Positions 1-8,948 of a stretch of DNA of 64,000 nt are shown piece by piece. How positions within the stretch are numbered: position 1 is the stretch's first letter; each line of letters begins with the position of its first letter. The notes below the pieces were generated by a model that worked only from the letters and a program-made list of their open reading frames with translations, did not search any database and was not told the origin of the DNA. The stretch covers positions 1 through 64,000 of the forward strand of contig CAVSZB010000003.1 in the NCBI GenBank assembly GCA_963732385.1. The letters run 5' to 3'. The position numbers and the translations under genes are program-made. Origin of the DNA: an uncultured bacterium. GTDB taxonomy: Bacteria > Krumholzibacteriota > Krumholzibacteriia > LZORAL124-64-63.

Positions 1-90
1 TTGGTTTAACCTGCAAAGGCGATTGGCGCGGGCCTGGCGCAAGCCAGGCGCGTGACAAGCGACTTTGTCAGGTTCAAACTCTTGTTATGC
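1..90 (-). repeat. attC site (family A, truncated by window edge)
   Basis: ggtttaacctgcaaagg...ctttgtcaggttcaaac...GTTATGC; near-identical to 3237-3334. Confidence 0.9.
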
Positions 91-205
91 TCCGAGCAAA
101 GTGCCTAGCCGCTTCTACACCAACCACGGCAGCCATAATCATCTAAACACAATGCGCGCCAGCCCAATCCCTCGCTCCCAGAGGTCAATTTCGAGATTGC
201 ACCCG

Positions 206-985
206 TCAGTTCTCTTTGTAGGGACCATCTTGTCTTATAGCCAAAATATCGCCCGACTTCTTCTCGCGTAGCACGGTTGCTCGCAAGTTTCCAGCACGCA
301 ATATCACAAAACCCTCCTTTGTCGCCCTATAGAGCCCGAACTTAATGATTTCTTTGCTATTCAGGATTCTAAGTTCTTCCCCATTTATCCCAATCCACAA
401 ACCACTGCTCTCGAGCATCGAATTTTCACTCGAATCTGAGTCGCGCATAAACTCTTCACCTTCATCCGCGAGTACGCTAGCAGAGCCACCCAGAATGGAA
501 TAAGCTAACTTCATAACTAGTACCCCCTGATCCACAGTAATGTGGGGGGAGTTTGGATACTCCGCATAGTAATCGAGATATTTTTCCGGTTCGTTTGCCT
601 TTTGCGCTTCTCCCCAAGCCTTTTCTCTTAGCTTCTCTTCGGCATACGCGACAAACTGACCGCTTTCACTATATCTCAAATACGTACGATAGCCATCCGC
701 TGAATCTCGAGCTAAGGCCTGCTTCCATGCCTTACTGTCTTTCGCGATAAATGCTTGTTCAGCGTTCGGATGCTTTGATAGAAATACGTCGTATGATTGT
801 ATCGTGTCTTCTTTTTGAGCGATCTCCCAATCGCGCGCAGTCTGATCACACCCCGCTGCACTCAATAAAGCGCAAACAGACAACATCAAGACAGGAAGAT
901 TCCTGCAACACGTACAAAATGGGCTTTTCCGACTCTTCACGACCTCACCTCCTGAAAGCACTGGTAATATTGATGCCACACACAT
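206..985 (-). CDS. Cassette gene: putative lipoprotein with helical W..A....T...Y..FL..(H/Y)P repeats
   Basis: Lipobox-like LSAAGC followed by three repeats (WEIAQKEDTIQSYDVFLSKHP etc.). True start may be downstream of 985. Confidence 0.75.
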   Translation of the reverse strand: MCVASILPVLSGGEVVKSRKSPFCTCCRNLPVLMLSVCALLSAAGCDQTARDWEIAQKEDTIQSYDVFLSKHPNAEQAFIAKDSKAWKQALARDSADGYRTYLRYSESGQFVAYAEEKLREKAWGEAQKANEPEKYLDYYAEYPNSPHITVDQGVLVMKLAYSILGGSASVLADEGEEFMRDSDSSENSMLESSGLWIGINGEELRILNSKEIIKFGLYRATKEGFVILRAGNLRATVLREKKSGDILAIRQDGPYKEN

Positions 986-1009
986 CCGACCTCTCTAGGG
1001 GAGTACTGA

Positions 1010-1108
1010 GTATAACGCTCTGGCTTCAGCAGTGGGCGCGGTTGGCGCGGGCCGTGCCCTGCACGGGCCGTGACGACCGCGACCATCTGCTGCAAGCCGT
1101 GGTTAGAC
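1010..1108 (-). repeat. attC site (family B)
   Basis: GTATAAC...ggcttcagcagtgg...ccatctgctgcaagc...GTTAGAC. Confidence 0.93.
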
Positions 1109-1211
1109 ACGCCTGACCGCCTTGCCGCATTCTGCTTCTCCGCGACCTTTTTGGCCCGACCGACCGTAGTGCTCGCGGTCCTGCGTCTTCGACCGCAGCA
1201 AACCCCACTGG

Positions 1212-1502
1212 CTATGCCTTCACCAGCCGGTGGCGCTCGCGAACACGGATCAACAAGCCAACGCATCCACCGAGGCAGAAGGCAATAATCGCCAAATTGA
1301 GTGGCCCGCCGTACTGGTCCACGCCAACGAGCCAAATGCCGCCTTCGATGAAGCTGGCCGCAATCGCGGCGATGACCAACAGAATCGAGAGAACGACCAG
1401 GACCTGCGCGCCCAATGATCGTGAAAGCAGGCGTGCGACCACCCAGCCGAACAGGCCGAAGACGACTGCGGTGATCAGTAAACCGATCGTGCCAGGATTC
1501 AT
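1212..1502 (-). CDS. Cassette gene: small membrane protein (about 3 TM)
   Basis: 96 aa hydrophobic ORF with purine-rich RBS, between two attC sites. Confidence 0.75.
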   Translation of the reverse strand: MNPGTIGLLITAVVFGLFGWVVARLLSRSLGAQVLVVLSILLVIAAIAASFIEGGIWLVGVDQYGGPLNLAIIAFCLGGCVGLLIRVRERHRLVKA

Positions 1503-1539
1503 CGCCTCTCTCCCCCTTCGCTATTCCTATCCCTTGCTT

Positions 1540-1638
1540 GTCTAACGCTTTGGCTTCAGCAGTGGGCGCGGTTGGCGCGGGACGTGCCTTGCACGGCCCG
1601 TGACGACCGTGACCATCTGCTGCAAGCGACTGTTATAC
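1540..1638 (-). repeat. attC site (family B)
   Basis: GTCTAAC...GTTATAC; near copy of 1010-1108. Confidence 0.93.
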
Positions 1639-2035
1639 TGCCGGCCTCAACCAGCTGGCCCACGGGTCCGGAAACCCCCGGCTCCCGGGACTCGCCGCAA
1701 CGACCACATTCGAGTGCGCCAGCGCTCACGCTACCCTCGCAATGCCCGCACTCTGCGCGCTGACAACGCTCACCTCGCCATTGAAGACGGCGCGAGCTTC
1801 CCATCGTCTCAGCATCGGCACAGCCGCGCGTACACCAGGTTGCCCAACATGCCCGTTCGAGCCGCTGAACTCGGTCATGTGGTCGCCGCGCACTCCCTCC
1901 GGCGGCGCGAAGGGGATCTCGATCAAAGCCGCAGACGCGACGATCCCAGCTTGCCGCCAGTGCGCGCTCCACCAGGGCGCCCTCACCATCATGAATCGCC
2001 GAACAACCAGCCACAAACCGCCACACCTGCTGTCT
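1639..2035. other. Apparently ORF-less cassette
   Basis: Matching core sites (GTTATAC/GTATAAC) at both ends; no convincing ORF. Confidence 0.6.
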
Positions 2036-2128
2036 GTATAACGCGGCGCTCAGCGGCAGGCACGCGGAGCGACGCTTGCCCTGCAAGCGGAGTGACGCGT
2101 GCATGTCCGCTGCAGCTGCCTGTTACGA
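2036..2128 (-). repeat. attC site (family C)
   Basis: GTATAAC gcggcgctcagcggcagg...tgtccgctgcagc...GTTACGA. Confidence 0.9.
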
Positions 2129-2307
2129 GGCCAACCTCCGCGCCTCTGACTCGGCCAACAAGGCCTGCCGGGCGTCCGCCTAGCGCGTGAGCGATAGGCG
2201 GCTTGTCACCGTGTCGCGAACCGCCGAATCACCTCGCCCTGGACAACAAATCCAAACCAAATCAAGGTCAAAACTATTTTCGAACTGCCTGACCACCGCC
2301 GCGGGCC
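2129..2307. other. ORF-less structured cassette, copy 1
   Basis: ~180 bp near-identical to 2401-2578; nested inverted repeats. Confidence 0.8.
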
Positions 2308-2400
2308 TTGTAACGCGGCGCTCAGCGGCAGGCACGCGGAGCGACGCTTGCCCTGCAAGCGGAGTGACGCGGGCATGTCCGCTGCAGCAGCCTGTTACGA
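2308..2400 (-). repeat. attC site (family C)
   Basis: TTGTAAC...GTTACGA; near copy of 2036-2128. Confidence 0.9.
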
Positions 2401-2578
2401 GGCCAACTTCCGCGCCTCTGACACGGCCAACAAGGCCTGCCGGGCGTCCGCCTAGCGCGTGAGCGATAGGCGGCTTGTCACCGTGTCGCGAGCCGCCGAA
2501 TCACCTCGCCCTGAACAACAAATCCAAACCAAAACAGGGTCAAAGATCTTTCGAACTGCCTGACCACCGCCGCGGCCC
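2401..2578. other. ORF-less structured cassette, copy 2
   Basis: Tandem duplicate of 2129-2307 carrying its own attC. Confidence 0.8.
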
Positions 2579-2677
2579 TTGTAACGCTCTGGCTTCAGCA
2601 GTGGGCGCGGTTGGCGCGGGCCGTGCCCTGCACGGCCCGTGACGACCGCGACCATCTGCTGCAAGCTGATGTTAGGC
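2579..2677 (-). repeat. attC site (family B)
   Basis: TTGTAAC...GTTAGGC. Confidence 0.93.
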
Positions 2678-3222
2678 TACTGTAAGGCCCAGCTTGCATT
2701 GCTTTTCACCAAACCACGAAACTCTTGAACCCAATCCCGAAGCGCCTGCGGAGCACCGTAGGCGGGGTAACGCAATTTCACCCGATGATGGTGCGGCCCC
2801 AAATGAAGTTCCACCTCGGCAGAGCCGCCATCAACTGTTTCTTCCTTCGTGACATCTATCAAGTCAGGCCCACAGGGCTCTGCGTGGAAGCGTCTCGTTT
2901 CGTAAACCTCAGGCTGCCCATAGAAGTCCAACGCCAAGAGCTTATCGATAATGGCCACCGCCGAATCTGGGATCACCGAGGCCAATATGCTCGTCGTGTC
3001 TGAGTACGCGCCTACTATTCTCAGCTTCCCGCGACAATCGAGCGCGCCAAGTACCGGTCGAGTCCAACCATCAAAGAACTTCACCGTTACCACCACATCC
3101 GATCGGCTGCATCCACCCGGACAATTCTCGCCACCCGCACACACTCTCGCGCCAGTTGCCCCCATTAATGCCAGAGCCAAGAGGGCTGCACTCGCAATAC
3201 TGCGGACGCGCGACATGCTCAT
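2677..3222 (-). CDS. Cassette gene: secreted hypothetical protein
   Basis: N-terminal signal peptide, GGAAGGA RBS, stop codon abuts the attC R'' box. Confidence 0.8.
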   Translation of the reverse strand: MSMSRVRSIASAALLALALMGATGARVCAGGENCPGGCSRSDVVVTVKFFDGWTRPVLGALDCRGKLRIVGAYSDTTSILASVIPDSAVAIIDKLLALDFYGQPEVYETRRFHAEPCGPDLIDVTKEETVDGGSAEVELHLGPHHHRVKLRYPAYGAPQALRDWVQEFRGLVKSNASWALQ

Positions 3223-3236
3223 TCCTTCCTTGCTTT

Positions 3237-3334
3237 GCCTAACGTTGGTTTAACCTGCAAAGGCGATTGGCGCGGACCTGGCGCAAGCCAGGTGCGTGAC
3301 AAGCGACTTTGTCAGGTTCAAACTCTTGTTAGGC
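3237..3334 (-). repeat. attC site (family A)
   Basis: GCCTAAC...GTTAGGC with L boxes tttaacctgcaaag/ctttgtcaggttcaaa. Confidence 0.95.
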
Positions 3335-3370
3335 TTTTGTTCCAACCACAGATCGCGTTTCACTCAACGA

Positions 3371-3828
3371 CTACAGATGATAGTGGTCCGTTGGCGGTTC
3401 GAAATCGTGGTCGCCGAATATATCTACACCCGACAAGAGCAGAACCTCTCGAACGCCCCAATTATCGTCGAATGTATTCCTTCTAAGTCAGCTAGCATTT
3501 CCGCACAACCCGCAGCCGAATTGCGTCGATTGTTGTGTTGCCTAAAGAAGTGATGGGCCAGTCGATTTCGTTCGCCAAGTGCCTTTTCGAGAATGCCCGA
3601 CAATTCGTCGACTGGTTTCGAATAGTCCCTCGCACCCGTAATGAGTCGACCTAGCGTAGACCGATTAATGCGGTTGACCTCGATCGTCGCTTCTTCCGGT
3701 GACACGGTGGCTTCGCCGCCGTCAATGCACTTGGCCTCGATTAGCAGGTTCCCTAACTCGTTCTCCAGCAACTGGGCTGCCTCAGAGGCTTCCCCATACT
3801 TCCGGTAGACTTCGTTGAGATCCGCCAC
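3371..3828 (-). CDS. Cassette gene: hypothetical helical protein (MADLNEVYRKYGEASEAAQLLE...), probable frameshift near 3446
   Basis: GGAG RBS before GTG at 3828. Frame stops at 3424, but a shifted frame continues VLLLSGVDIF...HYHL* to 3371. Confidence 0.65.
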
Positions 3829-3842
3829 TTCTTCTCCAATAA

Positions 3843-3941
3843 GCCTAACGTTTGTTTCACCTGCAAGGGCGGCTTGGCGCGCGGCGTGCGCAAGCAGGCC
3901 GCGTGACAAACGACCTTGTCAGGTGCAAACTCTTGTTAGCC
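3843..3941 (-). repeat. attC site (family A)
   Basis: GCCTAAC...GTTAGCC. Confidence 0.93.
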
Positions 3942-4307
3942 ATCTGACGATGTCTCCCCGAACAGTCTCTCCTTGTTTTTTGATATCGCGTCGCCGAGTT
4001 TTTCTCGTAACTCCGCGTGGTTTGTAAAGAACTGTACGTTCATGTGAATGTCGAAATGGATTTTAGTCGAAGTCCCAGGCTTCAACACGCTCTGCTTGCT
4101 GGCCACATAGACAACCGGCCGTCGTAGTGCCTCAGCATATCCCGCCTCAAAATAGCAGGAGGGTCGTTCGTCTGTCAGATCTGCCACGATGAACGCTGCG
4201 TCGTGAATTTCCTTCTTTATACGGCCGACGAGATCTTCTAGAGGATGCTCTTTGTCTATTCGAATCGCCACGCCGCCGAAATCGCCAATTACTTTCTCAA
4301 CTGCCAC
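3936..4307 (-). CDS. Cassette gene: nucleoside 2-deoxyribosyltransferase/TIR-like fold protein, probably 5'-truncated
   Basis: Motif FIVADLTDERPSCYFEAGYAEAL. Frame stays open to the cassette boundary without a good start. Confidence 0.7.
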   Translation of the reverse strand: MAVEKVIGDFGGVAIRIDKEHPLEDLVGRIKKEIHDAAFIVADLTDERPSCYFEAGYAEALRRPVVYVASKQSVLKPGTSTKIHFDIHMNVQFFTNHAELREKLGDAISKNKERLFGETSSDG

Positions 4308-4348
4308 AAATCGCTCATCGTACTCCCGAAATACTCTCGCCGAGTCTG

Positions 4349-4466
4349 TTCTAACAGTTTCTGCGTTTCAGCAACCGTGGGTCTGGTCGGTCTGGCGCGG
4401 ACCAGGGCGCCAGCACGGTGCGTGACGACCGTGTCAGGGTGCCGCAAGCGACTCTTGTATGTAGAC
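4349..4466 (-). repeat. Degenerate attC site (family B-like)
   Basis: TTCTAAC...ttcagca...gtgacgaccg...gcaagcgact; the R'' box is damaged. Confidence 0.6.
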
Positions 4467-4757
4467 TTGCGCTCGACCGAAATTCAACGCCGGCACTTCA
4501 GAATTTGGGCGACGCAGACGCGGCGTGTAGTTTGCGCCGCCGACGGTGATATACCAGGCGCGATTCCCGCCCAGGCGACACCACAAGGCCGACAACTTAG
4601 TTTACGGCCAGGCGCAATCTCGACGCGCAGCGCAGCTCGATTCGCCGGAGAGTGTACAAGGTCGATTCCGAGGCAGGCTTGGCGGCGTAACCTCAGAAAC
4701 GATTACCTTTTAGACGACCACCGACCGTCGACAGATAAACGCCGGTGCGTTGCCAGC

Positions 4758-4857
4758 CGGCAACTTCGCCGGATGAATCACTTGCGGGACAGCGCACGGC
4801 CCATGCCCTGCATGGGGCGTGACAAGCGGCTTGTCTGCTGCAAGTTCGTTGTTAGAC
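4758..4857 (-). repeat. attC site (family B-like, one arm degenerate)
   Basis: ...catgccctgcatg...gtgacaagcg...tctgctgcaag...GTTAGAC. Confidence 0.7.
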
Positions 4858-4869
4858 CCGCTGCCCCTC

Positions 4870-5588
4870 CCCGGCCAATAACAATTTCTCCAAGAACGCC
4901 TTGGTCTTTGATGCGATTTATTGCTCATTTTTTGATTTCACAAGCAGTTCTCCACAATAACCTTATTAACGGCTTCTTTTCGACTCTTCAAGTATGCTGT
5001 GCGCTTGCTATGTCGTTTATGGCTTCTTCCGACTGTTCCCTCGAGTTTTTCGTAGGCTGCTAATCTCATGGAAAAACAATCACTTTCTGAAATCATACTT
5101 CGTATCTCTGGTCCTCGACCCTGGCAATTGCCGATACACACACATACACATCAAAAAATGCTTGATTGTATTCGACCCAAGGCGAGTAACCGGGAATAAT
5201 CACTCGGCCCCAAAAGGACAACCCTTTTCAGAATGGACTGGTCATCAATTCCCCCAACCGCAACCTTAATAACAGAAGACTCCTTTTCATTCTGTACGAT
5301 GGCTAGCAACACTCCTTGGTCAACTATCTTCGCCGTAGCCTCTTCCCTGATTGCTGATGAGGCCGCCTTCTGCGCCACTTTCTCTATATGCTTTTGGCTG
5401 TTGATTTTCCGAAATGCCTTTCTTGCGATATAGCCGTGACCTGAATTGATTGCCACTTCTACCAGTAGTGCCTCGCTTGTTATCTCATTGAGCGCGGCTT
5501 TTCTCATTGCTCCGCTTCCGCCATCAATTGCTTCCCATGCGTGTCTCTTTTGTCCTATTCGTTCATACAGGCACTTGATAAAGTTCAC
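4870..5588 (-). pseudogene. Cassette gene: HEAT-like helical repeat protein broken by several frameshifts
   Basis: 5151-5588 encodes I.DQ..L..I repeats. The same repeat type continues in changing frames (SAIARVEDQR, MRLAAYEKLE, INRIKDQGVLGEIV). Confidence 0.65.
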
Positions 5589-5605
5589 TTCTTTTGGCCT
5601 CCTGG

Positions 5606-5703
5606 GTCTAACGCTGGTTTAACCTGCAAAGCTGTTTGGCGCGGGCCGTGCGCAAGCACGGCGCGTGACGAACGGCTTTGTCAGGTTCAAACTCTAGTTG
5701 GGC
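5606..5703 (-). repeat. attC site (family A), first in array
   Basis: GTCTAAC...GTTGGGC; its R'' GCCCAAC complements GTTGGGC at attI. Confidence 0.95.
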
Positions 5704-5777
5704 GGCATTTGCCTGCTCGCACTTACCGTTGGGCGGCAACCGTTGCAATATCGTACCTGTTCCTACGTTTCTCGTGC

Positions 5778-6818
5778 TCAACGAACAAAATCACGGGTGT
5801 ATTCGCTGTCAAAAAAGACGAAAGCAGAGCCTGCCGCAGCTTCCCTCGGCACCTCAAAACAAACTAGATATTGTCGAGGCCCCTGTCCCGATCGACACTG
5901 CCATGTCTGCACACCCCCGTCTGTCCAGCCGACCTCACCCTCTCCCTTTTCTCCATCCTTCTTGGGGACCACGACCATGGCAAAGGACCGATAGACTATC
6001 CCATCTTTTCCCCTGAGACCAACGTCGGAGGACATATCGCACTCGAAATTGGTCCGCGCTTCCACCTTGAAGTGCCCAATCATGAAGACGTTCCCCGAAG
6101 CCGGTGATTTCTCCTCGACAACCTGTTCCCAGGAAGAGACTAGGCGCCCGCCGTTGACTCCCATCACGACGGACCTGCTTTTTTCCCAATTGATGGGCTT
6201 AGAGGACGTTTTCAGTGATACCACGCTGAGACTTTCGCGTATGGCCTGCTCTTGCTCAATGGTCTCTACTAGTTCAGCGGCCCTCTCCGAATACCGGTTT
6301 TCCCCATGGGTACGGACAAAACCTTGAAGGGCTTCCAATTCTGGATTGCGTTCCAATTGTCGCCAATCACGTTCGACGTCCAACCAGCGCTGAGCCTCTG
6401 CCGCATGACTGCCCTGGGGATACTGCTCGATAAAGGCCTCAATTGCCTTCTGGGAGTTCTCCCCCTTGGCACTTATCCAATGAAACTCTTCTATCTTCCG
6501 ATCAACTGGATACTCTGTGGCCGGGTAGCTGCGCTTGAATCGTTCGTAGCCTGCAACAGTCTCGGTTTTTAGAGCCTCTCCCCAGGCGATCTTCTCGATG
6601 TTCATTCTGGCGCTGGCTGCGAGCGGAGATTCCGGATGCTCGGATATGAACTGCTGATACGCATCCACCGTCCCCGTCTTGGCCGCTTCATTGTACTTGG
6701 ACTGTGTACTAGCACATCCTAGACAGCCAACTAGGACCAAGCACGTGACCAGAACGAACATGGTGTTTCGTGCTGACGCAGGACCCCAGAGATGGCTACG
6801 ACTTGAGAGGATGTTCAT
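5778..6818 (-). CDS. First cassette gene: lipoprotein with helical Y..F...(H/Y)P repeats
   Basis: GGAGG RBS then ATG at 6818, lipobox LVGCLGC, about 4 repeats. Confidence 0.8.
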   Translation of the reverse strand: MNILSSRSHLWGPASARNTMFVLVTCLVLVGCLGCASTQSKYNEAAKTGTVDAYQQFISEHPESPLAASARMNIEKIAWGEALKTETVAGYERFKRSYPATEYPVDRKIEEFHWISAKGENSQKAIEAFIEQYPQGSHAAEAQRWLDVERDWRQLERNPELEALQGFVRTHGENRYSERAAELVETIEQEQAIRESLSVVSLKTSSKPINWEKSRSVVMGVNGGRLVSSWEQVVEEKSPASGNVFMIGHFKVEARTNFECDMSSDVGLRGKDGIVYRSFAMVVVPKKDGEKGEGEVGWTDGGVQTWQCRSGQGPRQYLVCFEVPREAAAGSAFVFFDSEYTRDFVR

Positions 6819-6856
6819 TTTCCCTCCATTTATAATTGGCCTGTTCGTGTGATCCC

Positions 6857-6875
6857 GCCCAACGCTCAGTTGATT
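6857..6875 (-). other. attI recombination site
   Basis: Minus strand AATCAAC-TGAGC-GTTGGGC (L box, 5 bp spacer, R box). The R box exactly matches R'' of the first attC. Confidence 0.8.
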
Positions 6876-7222
6876 GACCAGCGTAGTACCGATGGCGCTG
6901 GTCTCTGAGAAATTCTTCTTGCTGACCTCGGTATTGCGGTTGCTTGGTCTTCGTATCTGGATGCGTTTGGGCCTTCCCTTGTGATCTTCCTGCTTCCCGC
7001 TCGCTGTCGGCGACACGGCGCGGCCGCGCACGCTCCTGCCGTTGCCGCGCGGGGCGGAGCGGGGCGCTGGAGCGAAGGCGGTCTTTGGGCGAAACCTCAC
7101 GCCGCTTGGGCGAAGGGCGGGGCGGGCGGCGCCTTGGTTGCACCGTGGTCCCGGGGGCAGCGGGTGGCGGGGCACTCGTTACCCTTTGGGACGCTTCATT
7201 TTTGCATACTGGTCGGCTGGTT

Positions 7223-8209
7223 TCAAGATTTCTCGTCGAGGGGGCTTTTGACGGCGCGGGGGCCGCGGTTGAGGACGTGGGTGTAGATCATCGTGGTCGA
7301 GACGTCGGCGTGGCCGAGCAGTTCCTGGATGGTGCGGATGTCGTAACCGGACTCCAGCAGGTGGGTTGCGAAGCTGTGGCGGAGGGTGTGGCAGGTGGCG
7401 GGTTTGGTCAGGCGGGCGCGGCGGGCGGCCTCCCTGACGGCGCGCTGGATCACCGATTCGTGCAGGTGGTGGCGGCGGAGCTGGCCGGTTTCGGGGTCGC
7501 GGTAGTGGCTGGTGGCAGGGAACACCCATTGCCAGGCCCACTCGGCGGCGGCGGTGGGGTACTTGGTGGCCAGGGCGTCGGGCAGGGCCACGGTGCCGCG
7601 GCCGCGCGCGGCGTCGCGGGCGTGCTGGCGGCGCACTTGGTCGAGGTGGCGGCGCAGCGGTTCGCGGGCGGCGGCGGGCAGGAGCGCGATCCGGTCCTTG
7701 CTCCCCTTGCCGTCGCGGACGGTGATCTCGTTGCGTTCGAAATCGATGTCCTTCACCCGCAGGCGCATCGCTTCGAGCAGGCGCAGGCCGGCCCCGTAGA
7801 GCAGGCTCGCCACCAGCCGGACGGTGCCGTCCAGCTCGGACAGCAGGGCGCCGACCTCGCCGCGGCTCAGCACCGTCGGCACGCGCACGGGCCGTTTGGC
7901 GCGGACGAGATCGTCCAGCCACGCCAGTTCGCGGCGCAGGATGACCCGGTACAGGAACAGCAGGGCGCTCAGGGCCTGGTTCTGGGTGGAGGCGCTGACC
8001 TGGCGGTGGGTGGCCAGGTGCGACAGGAACGCTGTCACCTCCGGTTCACCCATCTCCTCCGGGTGGCGCTTGCCGTGATACAGCACGAAGCGGCGGATCC
8101 AGCCGGCGTAGGCCCGGCCGGTGCGGCGGCTGTAGTGGCGCGCGCTGATGGCGTCGTGGACCTGGTCGAGCAGGCGGCGGGGCGGGTCGGTGGGCGGTGA
8201 TGGAGCCAT
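7223..8209 (-). CDS. intI: Integron integrase
   Basis: [27 protein letters not shown], IntI-specific insertion ([11 protein letters not shown]...WQWVFP), [38 protein letters not shown]. Confidence 0.98.
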
Positions 8210-8332
8210 GGGCGGGGCGGATGCAACTGCGGAGCCAGCCCTTCCGCCGACCGTCGTCCCGCCGGCTGTACATCGGGCCGGATCATTGCTATTCTCTGGT
8301 TGGGCCTGGAGTCACACCAGAGAGAGCCGCAA

Positions 8333-8623
8333 ATGGAATCCGTTGATTTTGAAAAGGTTGTCGACGTTTGCCGCGCCCACGGCACACGAAAGATCACTCT
8401 GTTCGGGTCGTTTGTGCGCGGTGAGGCCGGTCCGGACAGCGACATCGACCTGATCGTGGCGTTCGCTGGGCCCACCGGACTCCTGACCCTGGTGCGGCTC
8501 GAGCGGGAACTCTCCGAAGCCCTGGGCCGAGGCGTGGATCTGCTTACCGAGGAATCCATCAGCCCCTATCTGCGCGAACGCATTCAGCGCGAACAGCGAG
8601 TCATTTATGAAGCAGCGGGATGA
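8333..8623 (+). CDS. Minimal nucleotidyltransferase antitoxin (MntA-like)
   Basis: [18 protein letters not shown] motif. Confidence 0.9.
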
Positions 8624-8948
8624 CCGGCTGTATCTGCAGCACATTCTGGACGCCATCTCCACGATAGGGTCGTACATGGATGGCGTCGAAGAGAACACGT
8701 TTCGGGCCTCGAGCCTGCTGCAGGATGGTGTCATCCGTCAGATTCAGATCGTCGGCGAGGCGGCCAAGCGAATTTCGCCAGAGCTCTGTGAGCACTACCC
8801 CGAGCTTCCGTGGCGGGACATGGCCGGCATGCGCGACAAGCTCGTTCACGATTACTTCGGTGTCGACATCGGAATGGTCTGGATTACGGCCACGGTCGAT
8901 CTCGTGGAGCTTCACGCTCAGGTGGCGCGGGTCGTCGCTGAATTGTAA
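8607..8948 (+). CDS. HepT-like HEPN RNase toxin (DUF86)
   Basis: [39 protein letters not shown] (RX4H). Confidence 0.92.

Follow-up and report, generated by a model that had tools for sequence, protein, structure and literature searches.

Near the start of the 64,000-nt stretch of DNA analysed here (the window), two near-identical units lie next to each other in an integron array, each apparently devoid of a gene. The locus thereby raises the question of what such a cassette carries: a structured RNA, as the original prediction held, a regulatory element acting as DNA, a peptide gene, or nothing beyond its own mobility. The predicted anatomy, two head-to-tail cassettes of about 272 bp, each with its own attC, was borne out. 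The recombination boxes could be located, with the complementary cassette ends matching in 6 of 7 box letters, and alignment of the copies showed scattered differences and one 1-nt indel (Table 1). Recombination-box borders, an own attC and a position in an array with an integrase are among the features that define a gene-less cassette, and all three were found. The best reading is that the two units are real, mobile, gene-less integron cassettes of a small family. A reading of the bodies as attC relics was dropped, as the lineage attC profile found nothing above -5 bits in the three family bodies (134 bodies scanned).

Table 1. Features of the gene-less cassettes and their surroundings (window positions)
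Feature	Position	Strand	Remarks
Gene-less cassette copy 1	2042..2313 (272 bp)	-	8th in array
Gene-less cassette copy 2	2314..2584 (271 bp)	-	7th in array
attC of copy 1	2036..2128 (R'' 2122-2128, R' 2036-2042)	-	attC profile match; the + strand is the recombining bottom strand
attC of copy 2	2308..2400	-	bottom-strand hairpin z -5.3 as RNA, -3.8 as DNA
Fold-back domain of copy 2, candidate RNA	2396..2512 (copy 1: 2124-2240)	-	70% GC; outer stems variable
Inner core	2424..2479		invariant in copy 1, copy 2, C1 copy and X13 variant
Central hairpin	2448..2473		7 bp, 1x1 mismatch, 3 bp, 4-nt loop
Two blocks also exact in the G016 cassette, at equal 25-nt spacing	2462..2508	-	8-mer 2501-2508; 14-mer 2462-2475
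A/T-rich island (37% GC)	2513..2555	-	most variable part; TTGACC at 2543-2538
Integron integrase IntI	7223..8209	-	Pfam phage integrase match
Nucleotidyltransferase and HepT-like ribonuclease pair	8300-8948		just upstream of intI

The array occupies positions 1-7200 and is read on the - strand (hereafter the sense strand). IntI points in the same direction as the cassettes, an arrangement for which PMC6557892 uses the term reverse integron. Close relatives of this IntI were found in 91 of the 208 genomes of the phylum. The gene pair upstream of intI is presumably a toxin-antitoxin system of the MNT-HEPN type. Elsewhere in the array, the cassette gene at 3936-4307 gave a weak, below-cut-off match to nucleoside 2-deoxyribosyltransferase-like proteins (E 3e-4), possibly a candidate defence domain, and a second ORF-poor cassette at 4460-4767 has a 321-nt body with a longest ORF of 47 aa on the sense and 106 aa on the antisense strand and unremarkable folding (z -1.1). 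More attC clusters lie far from the integrase in the same genome (C1:3300-14000 and C3:103000-106500), of which the C1 cluster carries an attI-like site and a paralog of the window gene at 2677-3222. An inverted-repeat motif, (T)ATCYRGATAC, located about 30 nt before the crossover, is common to the attI-like regions L063:1215-1260, L093:2800-2865 and C1:11595-11650 and weaker in the window's own attI region; it is possibly a site for IntI or a regulator.

A third copy of the cassette (272 bp, 96% identical) was found on contig C1 of the same genome, so that three copies are spread over two arrays. Since the DNA upstream of the C1 copy closely resembles the attI region of another genome, G016, this copy appears to be the first cassette of an array, at an attI-like site with no IntI match nearby. 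G016, which belongs to another genus, was chosen through an attC similarity search that returned nine places in five other genomes, G016 being the best match. Its first cassette after attI is likewise gene-less, with a body of about 248 bp that begins again at the contig end, and the family thus stands at an attI-like site in two of three arrays. The G016 and window cassettes align colinearly and without gaps over 66 nt, 40 of which are identical, including the two exact blocks listed in Table 1. Both arms of the lower helix of the central hairpin are kept in G016, the 3' arm about 70 nt further on, around a larger insert with a GCAA loop. Under lenient scoring none of 2000 shuffles beat the local alignment; under strict scoring 9 of 5000 did, and the pair was the best of 264 comparisons (z 4.7, the next reaching 4.3). 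The two-block pattern, itself drawn from these two genomes, occurred with 0 mismatches in the host genome and G016 only, of 208 genomes, with no additional place at 1-2 mismatches. The window and G016 cassettes are likely to be homologous.

The claim that no credible ORF is present was confirmed. The longest ORFs inside the bodies span 29-38 codons on the sense and 37-42 on the antisense strand, which satisfies both thresholds in use for gene-less cassettes, namely no ORF >150 bp (PMC1382264) or >210 bp (PMC11014356), and the Pfam cut-off was reached by none of the five overlapping ORFs. The original prediction had itself named a conserved small ORF as a competing cause of the conservation. 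Such a peptide gene, in the antisense frame SDRRL..SPRP or in a short sense frame, would fit with one antisense frame in which 11 of 21 residues are identical between the window and G016, 5 of them through synonymous changes. However, this frame was not significant against a block-preserving null (p 0.38 and 0.10), and the single 66-nt pair available showed no significant codon pattern, with differences of 9/6/10 by codon position. Moreover, no common start is present and the 1-nt indel shifts the frame between the copies, which makes a peptide gene extremely unlikely.

Conservation instead centres on the hairpin. The inner 56 nt (2424-2479) are invariant in the four close variants (longest-gap p ~0.02, with the choice of window allowed for), and the predicted identity of 2424-2490 in both copies was correct. 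Selection on the full nested structure, in contrast, was not supported: of ten alleles in the fold-back domain, six disrupt sense-strand pairs and four preserve them. Covariation was at shuffle level: both partners had changed in one of 42 pairs, and 319 of 500 shuffles scored as high (three near-identical rows). The one compensatory pair, 2408/2500, has a G.U intermediate on the sense strand only. The central helix shows no covariation because it is identical in both genomes. The predicted outer stem is present in copy 2, but position 2423 gives a T.T mismatch in copy 1 and the C1 copy, two of the three copies of the genome; the outer stems seem to serve as a scaffold under loose constraint. 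The conserved octamer at 2501-2508 is Shine-Dalgarno-like, with 8 nt complementary to the host 16S tail; no conserved start codon follows it, and it has no pairing partner in G016.

Folding was assessed on both strands against shuffled sequences. All stems that the original prediction had drawn were recovered where it placed them, and in the + strand minimum free energy (MFE) structure (z -2.42; 4 of 200 shuffles as good). The MFE of the - strand was nevertheless as good as or better than that of the + strand (z -2.66). The same preference was observed for RNA of the 117-nt core (z -3.89 on - vs -2.81 on +) and of the 91-nt core (-3.05 vs -2.36) of copy 2, as well as for RNA of the G016 cassette (-3.63 sense vs -2.08 on +). 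By comparison, of the 907 sense-strand windows of 91 nt taken from other cassette bodies (66 of 133), 12 reached z <= -3. The folding signal of the 91-nt core is lost in copy 1 (z -1.17 on - and -0.78 on +) and in the C1 copy (-0.21 and -0.05); the central hairpin, which does not differ between the copies, gave -3.3 on + and -3.5 on -. Folded as DNA, copy 2 reached z -3.6 to -4.8, and the 73-nt core folded slightly better on + (-4.76 vs -3.94). That RNA and ssDNA folds are inseparable by computation has been pointed out in PMC5737381. The covariance model built from the three copies, which missed the G016 cassette at E <= 5, returned long branched attC sites as its top non-self matches, a reminder of this ambiguity. 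At L181, L067 and L189, attC sites of a long class (~112 nt) carry one more side hairpin in the variable region, which gives a three-way junction.

The strand proposed originally, + and thus antisense to the array, had been chosen for its GUGA loop and G.A pair. Neither is kept in G016, which has a GNRA loop (GCAA) and G.U pairs on the array-sense strand. The changes at 2408 and 2492 leave G.U pairs on the sense strand only and break the + pairs. Because of these two changes, the z-scores in both genomes and the G016 loop and G.U pairs, the sense strand is favoured, though not proven, by the sequences compared. A structured RNA on the + strand, possibly using its anti-Shine-Dalgarno-like stretch, would be in line with the GUGA tetraloop, the 8-nt identity with the host 16S tail and a change at 2482 in a variant from a public run (X13, see below) that leaves a G.U pair on + only, and the sRNA-Xcc1 cassette of Xanthomonas is antisense to the integron promoter Pc (10.1101/2025.06.18.660453). 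Against it stand the weaker z-scores, the missing conservation in G016, the broken pairs and the lack of any promoter or terminator found on that strand, and we consider it very unlikely. Of the original structured-RNA cassette, then, a gene-less, undescribed family with a constrained hairpin stands, while its strand and selection on the nested structure are not supported.

That the family is undescribed agrees with the Rfam scans, in which the window gave no match at the gathering score, the cassette body a best match to Acido-Lenti-1 (16.2 bits vs 37, E 0.45) and the G016 cassette none of relevance. A full-text literature search, supplements aside, found no description of it; the supplements of PMC5737381 may hold non-Rfam motifs. 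Exact-pattern scans gave 32 matches in metagenome contigs and 3 in genome contigs, all by chance, and 3, 1, 9, 0 and 2 matches in viral contigs, none a true one. Blastn of plasmids and phages with both family members gave no true match, BLAST of 61 relatives gave ten weak chance matches, and BLAST of the 208 phylum genomes gave no true match among the best 3-4 candidates per genome. The 14-mer alone occurred in four other genomes, never near an attC and against four control hits, with one further match in a coding region, and the two-block pattern at 3 mismatches in 13 places, again none near an attC. Profile model R1 found one weak match in 91 genomes, inside a gene, and model R2 found weak matches in 151 genomes and 81 and 45 loci, none of them a cassette body. 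Since exact patterns catch close relatives only and arrays are often broken in assemblies, and with the profile searches covering this phylum, these negatives mean that the element was not found in the collections searched; it is rare, occurring in 2 of 208 genomes.

Several candidate identities were also discarded. A weak match at C3:118302 of the host genome overlaps a gene end. Rfam scans spanning the tandem junction revealed no self-cleaving ribozyme on either strand, and a viroid-like circular RNA was dropped for want of a known one; likenesses to HDV-like and hammerhead ribozymes and to group II intron domain V were weighed by eye against the consensus and likewise dropped. A retron, DGR or group II intron RNA was rejected, with reverse transcriptase PF00078 in neither of the two genomes (~95% complete). 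An IS110 bridge RNA, which has two large guide-bearing internal loops and originates in the IS110 ends (PMC11208160), was set aside as well: although IS110 occurs here, the cassette lacks such loops, its longest unpaired run being 5 nt, and its likeness to all five IS110 loci compared was at background. Kinship with a 733-nt gene-less family of genomes G123 and G124 was not above shuffles. The phylum holds other GC-rich, repeated, apparently gene-less families, at L187 (G124), L184 (G123), L190, L208, L069, L189 and L197, with lengths of about 733, 632, 589, 552, 491, 483 and 475 nt; in an uncontrolled comparison, the 733 and 491 families lacked codon-phase bias and gave better folds on the sense strand, and in G124 gene-less families alternate with gene cassettes.

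Part of the stretch was present in 20 public sequencing runs, four of which were examined (X1, X2, X13 and X20). In X1, a run guessed to be DNA, a 301-letter contig was an exact copy 2 closed head to tail (271 letters plus an overlap of 30), a joint absent from the host genome assembly. The metatranscriptome X13 contained a 303-letter cyclic contig, about 97% alike and at depth 15, in which the Shine-Dalgarno-like octamer is changed and one substitution (2482) favours the + strand. A one-unit head-to-tail loop was thus seen in two of the four runs, one an RNA library. X2 and X20 (59% and 51% read) yielded attC-like pieces only, and the partial matches of the other 16 runs are therefore no evidence. 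Rather than a discrete small RNA, the X13 contig spans the complete unit with its attC, and such a library may contain DNA; contigs carry no strand or end information, and this one is no proof of transcription. The cyclic contigs, seen without an ordinary-cassette control, may represent an excised circle, a tandem array with flanks too thin to assemble, RNA read through from one tandem copy into the next, or circular RNA. Together with the copies in two arrays, the exact one-unit contig is an indirect sign from which we infer mobilisation by IntI. Should the cyclic contigs be excised cassettes, such circles could be caught in shotgun data.

These observations bear on a selfish or neutral cassette selected as ssDNA: being short and self-folding, with complementary ends, it would cycle through excision and re-insertion more frequently than cassettes with genes do and accumulate as circles and tandems. 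Selfishness is an option named in PMC1382264 for non-coding cassettes. The head-to-tail form in the window and in both runs with a whole unit, the joint missing from the assembly, the position at attI and the DNA folding scores given above all point that way, as does the array itself: among 101 adjacent cassette pairs, three are more than 70% alike, and copies 1 and 2 alone exceed 90%. Selfishness as ssDNA would, however, not explain why the 14-mer and the octamer, the latter unpaired in G016, are conserved exactly; the element is rare, and the cyclic contigs come without a comparison to ordinary cassettes. This reading is rather unlikely. A variant, to which we attach a still smaller probability, is an integron "satellite", a selfish non-coding replicator of 271-273 nt existing mainly as excised circles or head-to-tail multimers and transcribed right round, the hairpin and the Shine-Dalgarno-like octamer promoting excision, attI re-insertion or persistence.

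The account that we tentatively prefer, at a little under an even chance, is a transcribed non-coding cassette with a hairpin-centred RNA on the array-sense strand, which would tune downstream expression or bind a host factor. Cassette recombination uses the bottom strand. IntI would excise the unit and re-insert it at attI, giving rise to first-position and tandem copies; excised cassettes enter attI preferentially, next to the array promoter (PMC6557892). Transcription of the cassette would then start from that promoter or from one without a consensus sequence in the A/T-rich island. As a U/G-rich single-stranded leader and the Shine-Dalgarno-like octamer precede the conserved helix, the RNA would most plausibly be a stable structured segment of the transcript or a small RNA, with the central helix and the octamer as its working parts, tuning downstream cassettes or binding a host factor. 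No terminator consensus was found in the cassette.

Alternatively, the cassette could act as DNA, the island being a non-consensus promoter and the hairpin serving for pausing, stabilisation or protein binding. In PMC11014356, promoters made up most of the gene-less Vibrio cassettes tested, and in-silico prediction failed there. Both family members contain TTGACC or TTGACG, the island is A/T-rich here, and other gene-less cassettes of the phylum often end, unlike the one described here, in a clear sigma-70 promoter, TTGAT(T/C)-N17-TAnnnT near the 3' end in eight bodies. Yet no sigma-70 -35/-10 consensus was found on either strand of either family member. It is in the hairpin that the cassettes are most conserved; the island varies more than any other part and in G016 lacks its A/T-richness. 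A DNA-level role as promoter or regulator is therefore unlikely, though far from negligible. The transcribed RNA cassette stays the preferred reading. Short enough to be made synthetically as a whole unit, without a consensus promoter and with a well-delimited hairpin under conservation, the family lends itself well to distinguishing "RNA cargo" from "selfish ssDNA".

Gene-less cassettes are a known class (PMC1382264, PMC6557892, PMC11014356) that makes up 6-49% of Vibrio arrays (PMC1382264); what is new is this rare, small family with two diverged members. It resembles the paralogous non-coding Vibrio cassettes described in PMC1382264 in having no ORF >150 bp, repeats within the array, a narrow distribution and, in the one 66-nt pair compared, no significant codon-position pattern, and in the functions that come into consideration (selfish, promoter or RNA). 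It differs from them in its unrelated sequence and phylum, the reverse integron, a distant relative about 60% alike and the tandem and cyclic forms. The promoter-bearing cassettes of Vibrionaceae and oral Treponema (PMC11014356, PMC6557892) are likewise gene-less, and those of Treponema also lie in reverse integrons, one in first position, whereas the cassette described here is 271 bp long instead of the 491-666 bp of the Vibrio set, lacks a sigma-70 consensus and has its conservation centred on a hairpin. The DUF1874 motif (PMC5737381) shares the multistem structure, the integron-like setting and the ambiguity between RNA and ssDNA, but, like an attC, it is found between ORFs, whereas the element described here forms the body of a cassette that has an attC itself and gave no Rfam match. 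The precedent for RNA as the cargo of a cassette is sRNA-Xcc1 of Xanthomonas (PMC8876359, 10.1101/2025.06.18.660453), which is antisense to Pc and, according to the latter source, lies beside symE, whereas here no gene is present, no Rfam match was obtained and the sense strand is favoured.
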